Below are positions 53,693 to 61,834 of a stretch of 64,000 nucleotides of DNA, one piece after another (position 1 is the first letter of the stretch; the number at the start of each line of letters is the position of its first letter). Position numbers and translations under genes: made by a program. The DNA is from Eledone cirrhosa (lineage: Eukaryota). The stretch spans positions 365,242,001 through 365,306,000 of the forward strand of contig OZ024743.1 in NCBI GenBank assembly GCA_964016885.1, given 5' to 3'. Under the pieces are notes generated by a model, which made no database searches, was not told the DNA's origin, and saw only the letters and a program-made list of their open reading frames with translations.

Positions 53693-54065
53693 AGAAATAT
53701 TAAAACAATGAAATTAAACACAAAACTGTTAATTCATAGTAAAACTCATTATTTTACGATCGTTTCTGGGGGGTAGTTCCCTGTATGTCCATTCAATTAT
53801 TGATCTATGTAAAACATATTACAAAATATCATAGTAAGAAAAAGATACATACGTCTTCACTACCCGCCGTCTTCAGAAATAATGAAGACGGCGGGTAGTG
53901 AAGACGTATGTATCTTTTTCTTACTATGATATTTTGTAATATGTTTTACATAGATCAATAATTGAATGGACATACAGGGAACTACCCCCCAGAAACGATC
54001 GTAAAATAATGAGTTTTACTATGAATTAACAGTTTTGTGTTTAATTTCATTGTTTTAATATTTCT
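53693..54065. repeat. Long inverted repeat (~183-bp arms, 7-bp spacer) made of pLTR-like sequence
   Basis: 53693-53875 is the reverse complement of 53883-54065. Confidence 0.95.
53747..53884 (-). ncRNA. Hammerhead motif with ~100-nt domain II
   Basis: CATTATTT-CTGAAGA-cGGCGGGTAGT...ACTACCCCCCa-GAAACGATCGTA-AAATAATG; 8-bp stem I, palindromic stem III. Confidence 0.7.
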
Positions 54066-54769
54066 CTCTCTCTCTATATATATATATAGATATGTGTGTG
54101 TGTGTGTGTGTGTGTGTGTGTCTGTGTGTGTCTGTGTGTCTCTGTGTGTGTGTCTGTGTCTCTATGTGTGTGTGTCTGTGTGTGTGTCTGTGTGTGTGTC
54201 TGTCTGTGTGTGTGTCTGTGTGTGCGGTGCATGTGTGTAATTCTTTTTATCTTTTAGCGGCAAATGAGTATACTTTCAAACGTACATCGCATCCATTTTG
54301 GAATTTCTATTTCATAAAACTGACAAGTAGTGTTGGTCCTCACGATAACCTAGAAAATCTTAGAAAGTATTGAAACAAGATAGATATCCCTTTTACATCT
54401 AATTGCTTAGTTCGCTGTAATATCTACGACTAATTTTTCAAATATTTTAAAAACTTTATTTACAGTAGTAAATTGATGTTTATATTATAAAAACAATTTA
54501 ATAGAAAAAGAAAAAAAAATAGATTGAGAAGAAAGAGGGAATGTAAAATAAAAAAATATAAAAAGAAGCGGAAAGGGAAGGGAAAGGCAAGGGCTCTAGT
54601 GTCACAGAAGTATAGCGAGGTGGAATAGGGAGGGGTGATTGGGTTCTGGGTCTAGGGCGCAGCAGTAATGAGGCTGTGCCCCGAGGACAAGACTCCAAAA
54701 GGATTCTTTTGATTTAAAATGTCAAGTTCATTAAACTGAAATTTTGTTTAGGAATGGAAATGGTTTCTA

Positions 54770-55165
54770 AATTTTAAACGCTGTGTCAGTGTTATTGTAT
54801 GGATCAGGTACATGAACCTTGATACAAGTACTTTAGAAGAAACTAGATGGTGCATACACTAAAATACTTAGGGTTGTACAAAATATAAACTGGCATCAAC
54901 GTATTACCAATGAAAGTTTATATGGAATCTTGCCCAAGATAACAACTACAATTGTTTAAAGACAAATCCAATTTCCAGGACATTACAGGGGAAGTAAGCA
55001 AGAAGTTACTATTGTGGAAACTAACTCACGGGAGTCGCAGGAGGAGGAGGCCTGGTCTATCAACTTTCAGTCGATATAGACCTCAGTAAGGAGCAGTTAC
55101 CAGGGGCAATAGAAAATCGTGAATTGTGGAGTGACAATGTCAGGAATGTTCAACCGTGGTCTCAA
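54770..55165 (+). mobile_element. Degenerate RTE-like LINE 3' fragment
   Basis: Manual translation KLDGAYTKILRVVQNINW..TNESLYG resembles KLDGYYTRMLRAALNVS at 62140-62325. Confidence 0.65.
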
Positions 55166-55224
55166 TGATTCGAGATGTAAAAGGTTGCATGCCTATGTGA
55201 TTGTTGATTCCAGTTTGATAAAAG

Positions 55225-55720
55225 AAATTGGGGCTTTTGATGCAAACAGGATCTGAAGATTTCTGTTTTTGAGTTTAGGTAAAATCCTGAATTTCTCACT
55301 TAGGAAGAGCGAGCATTTTTTGCTTCCATTTTTATATGGTGTTGAGTTTTCAAGCACTTTCCATGTGATGACATGGGGGTATTCTTCATTCTTTTAGCTG
55401 CCAGACGGTTTTTACCAGTGCTATAATGGAATGTTAAGATGGCTAAATGAGGAAAGGTGCAGTTAGAAACTTTGATACGGTTCTGTGTCCCATCCATAAA
55501 ATCAAAAATAACTGCAAAGAGCAAAACTGTAATGTTAAATCCATAATTTACGAAAGACATCAAATACACAAACGTTAAGAAGCCAGAAACCTGCGAAAAG
55601 CATGTAGACATGGTCCTAGACCGTTTTAAACAAAGGTTCTACCTGCAACTTTTCGCATTTAGACATCCCGATATGAAAACCACCACACCACTGGCAAAAT
55701 GGTCTGGCTGGTAAAAGAAA
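55225..55720 (-). mobile_element. Degenerate PLE GIY-YIG C-terminal fragment
   Basis: Manual translation VWQLKE..ITWKVLE..PYKNGSKKCSL.LSEK..LNSKTEIFRSCLH resembles the EN ends at ~6600-6780 and ~26900-27100. Confidence 0.6.
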
Positions 55721-55864
55721 TAGGAATAAAGATTGACATCACATTCGTATATATGCAATAAGTTATCTCACTCAAAAGCCTGTAAAAATATACTGTTTGT
55801 CTCGAACATCGATCTACTATATAAAACAAATAACATGATAGCGAACATTACCAAACTTTTATTC

Positions 55865-56004
55865 GCACACACACACACACACACACACACACACACACAC
55901 ACACACACACACACACACACACACACACACACACATACACACACACACACACACACACACACACACACACACACACACACACACACACACACACACACAC
56001 ACAC
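55865..56004. repeat. (CA)n microsatellite
   Basis: Read directly. Confidence 0.97.
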
Positions 56005-56016
56005 ATATATATATAT

Positions 56017-56675
56017 ATGTAACCCATTTGCAACTCCGCAGCGCCCTTATTATCATATTTACACATATTTTTTCCTCTGCTGCTACACGTCTTTTTCGTT
56101 CTATGTATCTTTACCCTTTCTAGCAGTCTCTCTCTCTCTGTTAGCCTCTTCCTCACCCTTCACTCACTCATTCTCTGTCACTACCTCTCCTCCTCCTCTT
56201 TCTTCCCGTTTGACCTGTGAGTAATTCTTTTCTCTCGCATTTTCGGCCAAGCTGGTCGGAATTTTTTCTCTCTCTCGTCTACGATTTCACAGAACTTATG
56301 TTTACCGAATTCGCAGACCAGACCCCTTCTTCCTCCCGTTAGACCTGTGCGAAATTCCTTCCTTGCTCACATTTCAACCAGGTTTGATGGTCTTTATTCT
56401 CTCGTTCACGATTTCACCGAACTTAAATTCATAGAAATCTGGGACTTGTCTCTTTCTTCCTCACTTTCTGTTGCTTCACAATTTTGTTTGTTTACCCTCG
56501 CGTCCCCTTTATTTACGTGTCCCAACGACTTTTTTTAGCCGTTGCTCGCACCAACCAGAGGTATATGGTCTTTAAAGCGATGAAATGCCTATGATGGTTG
56601 GAAGATCACTGATGAAGGACAAACTTTTTTCACATGTAACCCATTTGCAACTCCGCAGCGCCCTTATTATCATAT
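56017..56675 (+). repeat. 617-bp unit plus a 42-bp terminal direct repeat, with a broken HHR just before the repeat; pLTR-like
   Basis: ATGTAACCCATTTGCAACTCCGCAGCGCCCTTATTATCATAT at 56017 and 56634; CTGATGAAGGAC at 56609. Confidence 0.75.
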
Positions 56676-59721: not shown

Positions 59722-59895
59722 GAGGTTTAGTTAAAGAAAGAGTCTTTTATGAAGAAACTTTATTGTTATTTTATTATTATTATTATTATATATATATATA
59801 TATATATATATATATATATATATAATAATAATAATAATAATAATAAAATAACAATAAAGTTTCTTCATAAAAGACTCTTTCTTTAACTAAACCTC
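59722..59895. repeat. Palindrome centred on (TA)n
   Basis: GAGGTTTAGTTAAAGAAAGAG...(TA)n...CTCTTTCTTTAACTAAACCTC. Confidence 0.95.
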
Positions 59896-60657
59896 TAAAT
59901 CCTTTCACATATTTCACCAGAAAATTCTTTAACCAATTTCCCTCCTTATGTACGATACATAAGATACATAAGATACGTAGTTGATTGATCCATAAATGGT
60001 AAATTTAAGATACAAAATATGTTAGACATTTGCTAATGAAAAGTATAAAGTAATCGGTAGGGGTGGATGAGAATGATGTGAAATAAACATGTTTATAAAA
60101 GGCCTCAACAAGAGAGAACATTCTTAAATTTTATCTGATATATTCATTTCATTCCCAGTTTGTTGTGTACATACCATTAAACCAAACACCGTTGTTTCAT
60201 TGGCTGTGTAGATGCCTTACGTATTCATATATATGTATATGTATATATTTATATGTGTGTGTGTTTGTGTGTGTGTGTTTGTGTGTGTGTGTGTATGTAT
60301 ATATATATATATATATATATATATATATATATATATATATATACAGTATATGTACATTTGTATACACACATATATATATATATATATATATATATATATA
60401 TTTATATCAAGGAAACAAGAAACAAACAAGCTGATGCAATAACATGAAGTGTATTAGTTTCACGCTTGGAAGAAGAAGAATGAGTTACATAGTCAAAGTA
60501 TCGGGCATTTGTCCTTCATCAAGAAAAAAACAAAACAAAAGGAAAAGTGCGAAGAAAATAAAAAAAGTTGTTAAAATTAAAAACTAAAATAAAATAGATA
60601 TATACATACATATATATATATATATATACATATATATATATATATATATATATATAT

Positions 60658-60852
60658 AACAAAGGAATTGTGGTAAGGAACCAGATGGGCCATAACGCAC
60701 AAGAGTACTCAATACTTACGGTAGTAGAGTGGGAAATAGGGAAAAGTATGACCCGATGGCAGAGCTGAAGCCGTTTCGGCGGCTATTTCTGAGTCCAGAA
60801 ATGGCCGTCGAAACGGCTTGAGCTCTGACGTCGGGGTCATACTTTTTCCTAT
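60658..60852. mobile_element. Small hairpin-forming element in (TA)n, copy 2
   Basis: Homologous to 56689-56875, with a longer hairpin (..CGGCTATTTCTG agtc CAGAAATGGCCG..). Confidence 0.8.
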
Positions 60853-60951
60853 ATATATATATATACGCTGTATAAAATATATATATATATATATATATAT
60901 ATATATAGGGAAAAGCGAAGTAGTTTCAGATGTTCAAGTCCTTTAATAATA

Positions 60952-61141
60952 ATTGTTTCTACATTTGGCACAAGGCCAGCAATTACCCAGTGTATTACTG
61001 GTACTTTATTTTATCGACCCCGAAAGGATGAAAGGCAAAGTTAACCTCGGCGCGATTTGAACTCAGAATGGCAAGGACCGTAACTCTATGCGTCAAAGCA
61101 TGGCGTCCAACCCTCTACCGATACTGCCAATCCTCCGCCAG
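60952..61141 (-). mobile_element. SINE copy (near full length)
   Basis: GGCACAAGGCCAGCAATT..ATCGACCCCGAAAGGATGAAAGGCAAAG..ATTTGAACTCAGAA..CTGCCAATCCTCCGCC. Confidence 0.8.
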
Positions 61142-61156
61142 TCCTTTAATAATAAT

Positions 61157-61230
61157 GCTGTGATATATATTTCAGTGACGACACTGGCCACACTGTTCTG
61201 TGTGCGAGTGTCGTGTCATCATCAGACAGC
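61157..61230 (-). ncRNA. Hammerhead motif with extended stem II
   Basis: GCTGT-CTGATGA-tgacACGACACT..CACAC agaaca GTGTG..AGTGTCGTcact-GAAATATATATC-ACAGC. Confidence 0.7.
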
Positions 61231-61834
61231 TTGTTACATAATAAGGTTATGTTTCCGAAGCAATCAAAATTGGATCGACAAGGGAACGGATGAATTGCGT
61301 GTTCTTGGGTTTTTCATCCGCTCCCTTGTGAGTACCAATTCACCCCCACCGGCCTGCGCAAGCGCATGTCCGAAGGAAGTTGACCATTCTTGAATTGAAT
61401 TGCATCAATGTTTACCCTAATATATATACATATATATACGCTGTATAAAGGATTTAATTATGTATTTAATTATGAAGTCAAACGTTTGCATGTCTAACAA
61501 ATAAGACTGTCCATTTTAGTTATTTTTCTATATTCTATCATACATGATATATACAGCATTTCTATAGTAGTATTCCTTCATACATAGTATCATGGCTTTT
61601 GTTATTGTCTGATGAGAATAAAATACTATCTGAAATGTATCAGGATAATCTGTTTTTCTATGTACTTGAAAGTTTTTACATTTCAATTCGTTATTCATTA
61701 CAAAAATCTTCAAATATACATATACATTCATATATATTAACTGTGCTTGGATTTTCTGTCTCAATACTTGAATACATGTATTGTCTTTCGCATGAATTAA
61801 GATTCTGAAGCATATGCTGTCGCAGCACTTACTA

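Follow-up and report, generated by a model that had tools for sequence, protein, structure and literature searches.

In a reading that we hold with reasonable confidence, an 8-kb zone of Eledone cirrhosa contig OZ024743.1 comprises eight insertions from seven repeat families in TA microsatellites, likely made by Penelope reverse transcriptase-endonucleases, and the motif carried by one of them, family C, is a predicted re-ordered, knotted hammerhead. The zone lies at about 53693..61650 of the analysed window, which spans 64,000 nt, and its insertions (A, C, D twice, E, F, G and I) are nested. The best copies of the zone families are mostly 90-100% identical. A first-look search of the genome returned 1,072 candidates for F, 2,337 for E, 1,632 for A, 2,358 for I, 946 for D, 2,594 for C and 2,991 for G, numbers that are not copy numbers; the flanks inspected around family copies mostly covered only 1.5 kb. 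The features of the zone are as follows.

53553..54065, minus strand: family A, read as the 3' end, truncated on its 5' side, of a coding Hydra-type Penelope element (PLE)
53745..53886, minus strand: family A type I hammerhead with a long stem II (C.A first pair), a palindromic stem III loop and a UA cleavage site
56017..56669, plus strand: family C, one 617-bp non-coding unit plus a 36-nt overlap, flanked by (CA)n(TA)n on one side and (TA)n on the other
56690..56872, minus strand: family D, a 180-bp fold-back with no ribozyme and two fixed ends in (TA)n
56951..57461, plus strand: family E, 5'-truncated copy of a ~707-bp non-coding tandem unit, with a fixed 3' end at (TA)n
57156..57282, plus strand: family E type I hammerhead, stem II region of 95 nt
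57579..58753, both strands: family F, head-to-head copies of a 316-bp unit (2.3 on the minus strand, 1.4 on the plus strand)
57715-57758 (minus), 58031-58074 (minus) and 58543-58586 (plus): three copies of the family F U3-A8 type I hammerhead
58955..59895, minus strand: family G, a repeat no shorter than 1.25 kb, fixed 3' end at 58955
59126-59187: family G type I hammerhead, stem III damaged in the zone copy
59847-59895: short inverted piece of family G
60659..60852, minus strand: second copy of family D
60908..61420, minus strand: family I, 3' part of a ~1.3-kb (about 1,307 bp) non-coding tandem unit
60954..61139: short interspersed repeat, which we take to be SINE-like, that interrupts family I and has a 17-bp target-site duplication (60937-53 / 61140-56)
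61157-61230, minus strand: family I type I hammerhead with a 2-nt insertion before G12

An earlier note on this DNA, made from the letters of the sequence, had listed six well-formed type I hammerheads, and all six are present where it placed them. Five were recovered by a pattern search, against a mean of 0.18 and a maximum of 2 in 200 shuffles of the zone; the sixth, 53745-53886 on the minus strand, was detected when a mismatched first stem II pair was allowed. The three F hammerheads scored 30.4, 30.4 and 27.2 bits with Rfam HH9, below the gathering score of 52, and the one at 58031 has two substitutions in stem III. The division into four unrelated hammerhead families also stood: the longest stretch common to units of C, D, E, F, G and I was an 18-nt match between F and I, and the end of A has 14 nt in common with E. 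Five inverted repeats were found as claimed (53693-54065, 57579-58753, 56772-56870, 59722-59895 and 60740-60850). The zone has almost no coding sequence, as the note had said: a panel of 14 retroelement proteins found no coding remnant, and its sole match was a spurious 17-residue self-match, seen twice. The note had further counted about four decayed motifs without coordinates, so that their mapping is ours; a truncated copy at 53883 that lacks C3 and the damaged motif at 59126-59187 bear this out, whereas two family D hairpins lack CUGAnGA and are not hammerheads, and one motif is the intact re-ordered one. This re-ordered hammerhead of family C was missing from the note's well-formed list.

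The zone had been called a hotspot. It contains five motif families in 8 kb, and among 40 evenly spaced 8-kb stretches of the genome, one also had five and three had at least three. The term therefore holds weakly, for a dense but not unique spot: it falls at the high end of a pattern seen throughout the genome, and on its own the 8-kb hotspot is of no particular importance.

The insertions have a common footprint, with back-to-back arms, 3' ends in (TA)n, variable 5' ends and two fixed ends per family. In family F, 28 of 33 loci were two-armed; 23 of these 28 paired site 1 with site 2, five had one irregular end, and none used the same site twice. The left arm of the F copy in the zone stops at site 1 and the right arm at site 2, 31 nt further. 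Two end classes were also found in A, C, D and I, and in front of the zone copy of I stands an inverted copy, 32 bp long, of the second fixed end of this family. The proposed microsatellite targeting is supported by fixed 3' ends at dinucleotide repeats, (TA)n, and the proposed Penelope link by this footprint and by a coding parent for family A.

We propose that the enzyme would nick both strands of (TA)n and that reverse transcription would start at each nick from one of two fixed internal RNA sites. Where the truncated 5' ends of the two copies meet, they would form a fold-back in which a single arm has a 'tail', and the (TA)n left flanking every insertion would attract the next one, producing nests. 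The alternative that fold-backs and arrays arose after insertion, by DNA slippage, hairpins or assembly error at TA repeats, draws on three F loci (L014, L250 and L253) in which private variants, read by eye, are common to both arms in register from the fold centre, a pattern more easily explained by later conversion or fold-back copying than by two independent primings. Moreover, the long F satellite has higher-order units, and DNA-level expansion therefore happens. Yet such an origin gives no reason for a second fixed stop site, the fold centres differ between loci, and in 23 of 28 cases the arms stop at two distinct sites specific to the family, in 0 of 28 at the same site; we regard it as very improbable.

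Priming by a Penelope enzyme has a described counterpart in PAc, the protein of a Poseidon PLE from the green anole, which is reported to cleave and extend both strands with two adjacent internal RNA start sites (Frangieh et al. 2024, PMC11167929). A tandem, inverted and tailed PLE structure with (TA)n bias is likewise described in PMC8557442. As in the PAc account, both strands would be used in the zone and two internal start sites would define a tail. PAc, however, is described for a coding element in vitro, with start sites used without strand preference, whereas the non-coding elements here have one site per arm. Until now, co-occurrence and similarity of pLTRs have been the grounds for naming the enzyme that moves animal retrozymes; finding a two-site, two-arm footprint on non-coding units supplies direct genomic evidence for PLE enzymes and predicts exact start sites.

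Judged from its sequence, family A represents ordinary debris from the 3' part of a coding PLE of Hydra type. Its sense arm runs from 53875 to 53553 and its inverted second arm covers 183 bp (53883-54065), and both 3' ends adjoin dinucleotide repeats. Translations of the parent (L143, L062, L053) contain a C-terminal GIY-YIG, DKT and a CxCX5C linker, with CxxC and CxH next to the conserved E and N, and they lack CCHH. Craig et al. (2021, PMC8557442) describe Hydra-clade PLEs with an RWK motif and, in general, a length below 3 kb; at the RWK position the parent has RWR in L053 and CWR in L143. It matches that description in its C-terminal GIY-YIG, DKT, linker, type I hammerhead and (TA)n target, an assignment that comes from protein motifs read against section 11 of PMC8557442. 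The parent is longer than is usual in that account, at ~3.9 kb from ORF start to 3' end, because of low-complexity stretches, and the tail of A measures ~139 nt against the 30-40 bp described there for PLEs. A second coding PLE lies in the window outside the zone.

28231..30060, plus strand: young coding PLE, 5'-truncated, with RT plus GIY-YIG and a Neptune-like linker
29865-29907: minimal type I hammerhead within this element

This young element has an inverted 5' piece and a 3' end at (TA)n. With 18,141 candidates genome-wide and open frames of up to 1,239 aa, it is a candidate enzyme donor. The non-coding units have no sequence in common with the two coding PLE ends to which they were compared.

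Families C, E, F and I differ from such debris. E forms tandem dimers of ~707 bp, I dimers of ~1.3 kb and F arrays of 316 bp; the longest ATG frames of C, E, F and I are 51, 44, 28 and 112 aa, their GC contents are 0.43, 0.35, 0.34 and 0.40, and the PLE protein panel found no match in their units. An ORF within 1.1 kb upstream of the hammerhead was present for 8 of 21 motifs of A and 34 of 40 of the young PLE, compared with 0/212 for F, 0/47 for I, 0/33 for E and 0/9 for G, in counts where overlapping loci were entered more than once. No PLE ORF was found in the shared part of G, and D likewise has no ORF. Tandem non-coding units may have been copied from a small circle or a uniform multimer; the F variant A156C was mixed in none of 26 multi-unit loci, against 12.3 expected.

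It has to be weighed whether all families are pLTR debris of coding PLEs with unsampled parents, their units being formed by partial-tandem insertion. This explanation holds for A, and it gains from G and D, for which tandem units are not demonstrated, and from a small protein panel and mostly short flanks. It conflicts with C, E, F and I, where the second end runs directly into the next unit with no ORF between, with F itself, which occurs at dispersed loci in arrays reaching 7 units and also as a satellite exceeding 60 units, and with the missing upstream ORFs of F, I and E set against the coding family. We consider it quite improbable. Ordinary PLE debris, the outcome that the earlier note had named as speaking against its own proposal, was found for family A. 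Independent amplification of non-coding families is seen in C, E, F and I, whose tandem units contain no PLE ORF. The picture of ribozyme-bearing, non-autonomous PLE parasites is partly supported; it does not extend to A, which is coding-PLE debris, or to D, which has no ribozyme.

The earlier note had suggested that such elements may be largely uncatalogued, yet the class is already catalogued as non-LTR retrozymes (Cervera and de la Pena 2020, PMC7229834; Li, Clavereau and Pollet 2026, bioRxiv 10.64898/2026.07.22.740005), although a literature search on octopus hammerhead ribozymes found none on these particular families. As those accounts describe for retrozymes, E, F and I are tandemly repeated and each unit holds a type I hammerhead, and C, E, F and I are non-coding with a GC content under 50% (34-43%); units of a few hundred bases and a proposed PLE dependence are common to both. 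The zone insertions differ from the retrozymes described there in that their arms lie head to head and that two fixed ends abut (TA)n, the word 'inverted' having no occurrence in the main text of PMC7229834, and in units that reach 1.3 kb rather than a few hundred bases. Family C has no type I hammerhead; it is retrozyme-like in behaviour and outside the definition. Retrozymes are defined in these accounts by self-cleavage and circular RNA, whereas the zone families are known here from sequence; in a related assay, only one of nine predicted Xenopus retrozyme dimers is described as cleaved. By rough arithmetic, a density of ~24 type I motifs per 400 kb extrapolates to ~1.8 x 10^5 per genome, far above the 5,000-14,000 that published work reports for mussel, coral and axolotl.

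The motif of family C, all on the plus strand, is composed as follows.

56546..56616: predicted hammerhead motif, pseudoknotted and with a changed part order (first the cleavage site, then GAAA, then CUGAUGA)
56566-72 and 56602-08: P1, 5' and 3' strands
56546-49 and 56577-80: P2, 5' and 3' strands
56560-64 and 56586-89: P3, 5' and 3' strands
56551-56 and 56596-601: P4, 5' and 3' strands
56557-59 and 56590-95: kink-turn strands
56582-85: GAAA
56609-15: CUGAUGA
after A56565: predicted cut

Genome-wide, the motif pattern gave 15,011 matches, compared with one for a reversed-pattern control. P1, which the pattern left unspecified, paired at 5 or more of its 7 positions in 70 of 70 distinct cores, versus 1 of 39 chance matches in viral contigs. 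Across 26 subfamily representatives 93% of cells were paired, with both-side changes at 13 of 23 pairs; none of 500 shuffles scored as high, in a test that related sequences inflate, and slid controls reached 31-48%. Two of the stems covary strongly, P1 having double changes at 6 of 7 pairs. P3 was 100% paired in the representatives, but it is fixed by the search pattern and its invariance is therefore not independent evidence. A kink-turn consists of a C-stem, a 3-nt bulge, tandem G.A and A.G pairs and a second stem. Its sequence signature is present here: G 56593 is invariant, A 56594 and A 56559 occur in at least 90% of the 26, and G 56558 is U in one subfamily group. P1, P2 and P3 would rebuild a normal hammerhead core, the P3/P4 kink-turn, by bending the chain, would let P4 stack on P1, and cleavage is predicted after A56565.

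The motif resembles the type-SGC hammerhead of Eckert et al. (2023, PMC10085705); non-circularly permuted hammerheads were first described from environmental RNA. Both motifs have the block order S, G, C with all conserved hammerhead core bases, pseudoknotted stems I and III (in C, stem I covaries and stem III pairs as the pattern fixed it) and a short link from stem I to the strand preceding GAAA. Unlike in type-SGC, the best partner for stem II is the strand 5' of the whole motif, so that CUGAnGA is split from its stem II strand, and a fourth helix with the kink-turn signature joins stem III to stem I; P4 pairs the 5' flank with the strand that precedes P1 3', instead of connecting the far sides of stems I and II. 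This arrangement lies outside the six block orders given in PMC10085705, and we found no description of the knotted part order in the literature.

A plain type-SGC motif with a poorly paired stem II, the upstream pairing being incidental, would explain the block order and the covarying pairs 49-84, 45-88 and 44-89, which are paired in 19, 22 and 18 of the 26 sequences and show 11, 1 and 5 double changes, respectively. In that register 40% of stem II cells are paired, a score that still beats shuffles, but the three core-adjacent positions pair in only 0, 1 and 3 of 26. The upstream partner, P2, is by comparison 95% paired (both-side changes at one of four pairs, in two sequences), and at the Naiad ends considered below it forms perfect pairs. 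Stem II of the C motif is ambiguous between the two partners, and we judge the plain type-SGC reading as a whole unlikely. A local hairpin after CUGAUGA did no better than the slid control.

Another reading is that the C motif serves as a structured protein-binding or RT-start signal that has retained bases like those of a hammerhead and no longer cuts, or cuts only with protein. The PAc hammerhead is reported to need the protein for cutting and to be dispensable for insertion in vitro (PMC11167929), genomic C copies continue uncut across the predicted site, and the fixed ends of C lie only ~20 and ~55 nt past CUGAUGA. Against this, the core bases are kept across subfamilies that are 74-100% alike, none of 25 variant rows examined falls on U16.1, GAAA or CUGAUGA, and nearly every copy has A or C at position 17, which a cut site needs. 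This makes such a signal unlikely, and a self-cleaving motif our preferred reading.

Naiad PLEs are reported without canonical hammerheads in PMC8557442, and the octopus Naiad is annotated there as 'HHR_half_core'. With other stem sequences, the C wiring is readable by eye at seven places among the Naiad consensus ends of its supplement; the upstream stem II partner, also by eye, makes six perfect pairs directly before GAAA with four different sequences, and two ends (places 34 and 35) have the ordinary core order. Family C is like Naiad as described in PMC8557442 in its (TA)n target and in the tandem and inverted copies with a tail that it forms elsewhere in the genome, where its two fixed ends are ~32 nt apart; it differs in being non-coding and in its stem sequences. 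C-type motifs had no linked upstream ORF in a search with a protein panel that lacks Naiads, and two short Naiad patterns gave no match to a Naiad parent in the genome. Going by the shared wiring, read by eye, the C motif is likely the same ribozyme as that at Naiad 3' ends. We lean, by a little, towards a broader interpretation: the C motif would be an active hammerhead of a seventh connectivity, locked by a kink-turn, and the overlooked ribozyme of Naiads in several animal phyla. Family C would have left or outlasted its coding parent and reached ~15,000 copies by way of non-coding circles that other PLE enzymes copied, with two strand-specific start sites.

A rewired hammerhead at high copy number in an animal genome, with many covarying variants, offers a test set for fold rewiring. 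The predicted C wiring means that standard hammerhead descriptors miss a class, and if true, its presence in Naiads would correct the view of these elements as hammerhead-less.

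The zone at 53693-61650 of the window (~8 kb) is AT-rich sequence punctuated with arrays of (TA)n, (CA)n and (TG)n. A descriptor scan identified five type I hammerhead motifs there, whereas 200 dinucleotide shuffles averaged 0.18, and a second scanner, in which a mismatched first stem II pair was allowed, recovered one more at 53745-53886; all six type I hammerheads named in the earlier note are therefore present. The five inverted repeats claimed for the zone were all found as well, and a search turned up no coding remnant. Minimum-energy folds of the motifs did not reliably recover the hammerhead fold (z +0.3 to -2.2) and were excluded as evidence. 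An Rfam scan of the whole window returned HH9 only, below threshold and on family F, with no match at the family C motif, and the segments 54240-55865 and 59895-60200 matched none of the other loci compared. The observation itself was confirmed, and the interpretation placed on it, an ecosystem of non-autonomous, ribozyme-bearing parasites of Penelope-like elements (PLEs) that target microsatellites, was supported in part.

We compared the zone with 40 evenly spaced 10-kb stretches of the genome, the central 8 kb of each being used for family counts. The strict scanner detected 24 type I motifs in these 400 kb, against 1 in 120 shuffled stretches. With the relaxed scanner and the family C pattern, the zone held seven motifs of five families; the central 8 kb held no family in 26 of the 40 stretches, one in 11, three in 2 and five in 1. 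The zone, described earlier as a hotspot, lies within the top few percent, but it was picked after the fact and one of the 40 stretches equals its five families. The number of (TA)n arrays showed a weak positive correlation with motif count (Spearman 0.32, p 0.048). The clumped distribution of motifs fits nesting of insertions, and, taken as a location in this genome, the zone does not stand out. Elsewhere, 35 type I motif clusters were seen in 1.3 Mb examined (loci L163-L202 and others), many with a long stem II, a mismatched first stem II pair and a palindromic stem III; one locus (L169) carried a second U3-A8 family, and some small clusters were false positives, one of them within an ORF.

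When the genome (3.0 Gb) was searched with each piece of the zone, every piece proved to be a repeat family, with ~950 to 3,000 first-look candidates each. In longer copies of family A, an upstream GIY-YIG frame stops ~530-550 nt before the hammerhead; at one locus (L143), reverse transcriptase (RT) and endonuclease frames are followed by family A sequence, and the motifs of this coding parent agree with the description of the Hydra clade. This makes family A ordinary 3' debris of a PLE. The earlier note had named as refutation the case that all motifs are such debris; this holds for A, whereas F, C, E and I are tandem units without a PLE frame (316, 617, ~707 and ~1,307 bp, respectively). Relatives of family C form tandem units of 500-680 bp. 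Copies of family G have at least 1.25 kb in common, without a PLE frame, and the copies compared yielded no clean tandem unit. Family D is a 180-bp hairpin element without CUGAnGA; as a hammerhead it was ruled out, this block occurring within 90 nt upstream in none of 112 occurrences. Diverged relatives of D adjoin family A ends in the flanks of L061 and L143, and D may comprise several subfamilies. Contigs from four sequencing runs contained F-like pieces in 4/4 and C-like pieces in 2/4, which speaks to presence only; no RNA run was among the matches listed for the F unit, and this has no bearing on expression.

Several further repeats were observed around these families. A family F satellite at G000:C2:207692000-207711999 in this genome comprises >60 units, in which 316- and 304-bp variants alternate and an interruption of ~210 bp recurs, and both of its ends lie beyond the 20 kb examined. 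A direct repeat of ~20 bp (a TA run plus 11 unique bases) stands on either side of the family I insertion, at 60858-60877 and 61430-61449, and is possibly a target-site duplication. Three independent copies (60937-61156 of the window, L073 and L082) have one and the same short interspersed repeat inserted at nearly identical positions, immediately 3' of the family I hammerhead.

Outside the zone, the window carries the following elements:
10934-21816, minisatellite, 28 bp x 380, strongly strand-skewed
21850-25064, minisatellite, 24 bp x 134, strongly strand-skewed, adjoining the 28-bp one
26531-26905, GIY-YIG piece from a different PLE family; the Hydra-type frames in loci L002, L029 and L049 are its relatives
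28231-30060 (+), a young PLE that is coding and whose CX4CxxC linker is Neptune-like, with an inverted 5' piece, a minimal hammerhead and its 3' end in (TA)n
35433-36350, 41548-42327, 38403-47900 and 62332-62916, other non-LTR retrotransposon fragments, comprising two with zinc-finger matches, an endonuclease-RT tandem pair and one RT fragment

The young coding PLE has 18,141 candidates in the genome, with copies 96-100% identical and open frames of up to 1,239 aa (a near-full 1,239-aa frame lies in L159). A Pfam search of six window ORFs left the two PLE fragments matching no family.

Every family of the zone has, on the ribozyme strand, a fixed 3' end abutting a dinucleotide repeat and a variable 5' end. 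The fixed ends lie ~55-200 nt past the predicted cut site rather than at it. Two fixed end classes were seen in A, C, D, F and I, and one in E and G. For family F, we sampled 33 distinct dispersed loci from the candidate list, excluding the long satellite. Among these, 28 were two-armed, and 23 of the 28 carried site 1 and site 2, one per arm, site 2 being 24-35 nt further; none carried the same site twice, and five had one irregular end. Frangieh et al. 2024 (PMC11167929) showed for a PLE protein that it cuts both strands and extends each of them, and that extension begins at two adjacent internal sites, which set the genomic tail. According to Craig et al. 2021 (PMC8557442), PLEs show partial tandems together with 5' copies in inverted orientation, carry a tail at one end and are biased towards microsatellites. 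Since the non-coding families bear the footprint described for PLEs, we infer that PLE enzymes are their probable writers. Compared with two coding PLE ends, the non-coding units showed no sequence link beyond a 14-nt match. The parts of the zone belong to known kinds, PLE debris and elements that resemble retrozymes, and bear a clear PLE footprint.

The variants within F loci bear on the template. Variant A156C, present in 16 of 99 units, was mixed in none of 26 multi-unit loci (12.3 expected), and C127T was mixed in 3 of 25 (15.9 expected). The template of each F insertion was uniform, and the data fit a circle and a uniform array equally. Three F loci, read by eye, run counter to this simple picture: their arms have private variants in common that stay in register when counted from the centre of the fold, a sign of either later conversion or fold-back copying. 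At L253 (units 1912-2225 and 2354-2667), both arms carry a pair of A-to-G changes on the ribozyme strand, spaced 6 nt apart; conversion could account for them, as could RNA editing that reverse transcription then fixed.

The family C motif (56546-56616, +) has the block order cleavage site, GAAA, CUGAUGA. In 39 aligned relatives of 56556-56665, CUGAUGA and the upstream GAAA are conserved and there is no downstream GAAA. A genome pattern that fixed only stem P3 and the core, leaving P1 free, gave 7,369 plus 7,642 matches in this genome, and the reversed pattern gave 1. P1 was paired at 5-7 of 7 positions in 70/70 distinct cores, compared with 1/39 chance matches from viral contigs. The viral matches (50 stretches) had scattered lengths and unpaired P1, and none passed the full descriptor; they are therefore chance. 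Among 26 representatives picked from 40 sequence classes to span subfamilies, double changes occurred at 5 of 6 pairs in P4 and 6 of 7 in P1. Between P3 and P4 lies a 3-by-6 internal loop that bears the sequence signature of a kink-turn. Contigs aligned to C at no less than 80% likeness gave 25 variant rows, and in these U16.1, GAAA and CUGAUGA were never hit. A type II or type III reading of the motif, and one in which stem II is a local hairpin, were rejected or unsupported.

The same block order was named type SGC by Eckert et al. 2023 (PMC10085705), who validated its cleavage; that paper reports none in known organisms' genomes, save for one bacterial candidate of another order, and builds stem II from the strand after CUGAnGA and the strand before GAAA. 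In this register, only 40% of cells in the C alignment were paired and pairing was nearly absent at three consecutive near-core positions; pairs 49-84 and 44-89 covary nonetheless. When the strand before GAAA is matched instead to four bases lying 5' of the entire motif, 95% of cells are paired, and a single pair shows changes on both sides, in 2 sequences. The C motif was therefore not classed as type SGC: it is predicted to act like one, with its CUGAnGA block detached from its stem II strand.

Craig et al. (PMC8557442) describe Naiads as lacking canonical hammerheads and mark a half core in some, an octopus one included. We inspected by eye 60 of the 62 CTGATGA places in the supplement of that paper. 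Seven Naiad-end places (28-31, 37, 40 and 41; four distinct sequence types) showed the same wiring as C: in every one, a 5' strand forms six perfect stem II pairs with the strand that precedes GAAA, and P1 and P3 differ in sequence. Places 34 and 35 have the ordinary core order, and the remainder were tabulated canonical motifs, coding regions or ambiguous. Two patterns for a Naiad parent gave 0 matches each in this genome, which does not prove its absence. In the literature searched, which left subscription journals largely uncovered, we found no description of the C wiring, of a Naiad hammerhead structure or of octopus retrozyme families. These results strongly support the C motif as a conserved RNA structure, putatively a catalyst, and make it the notable part of the zone.
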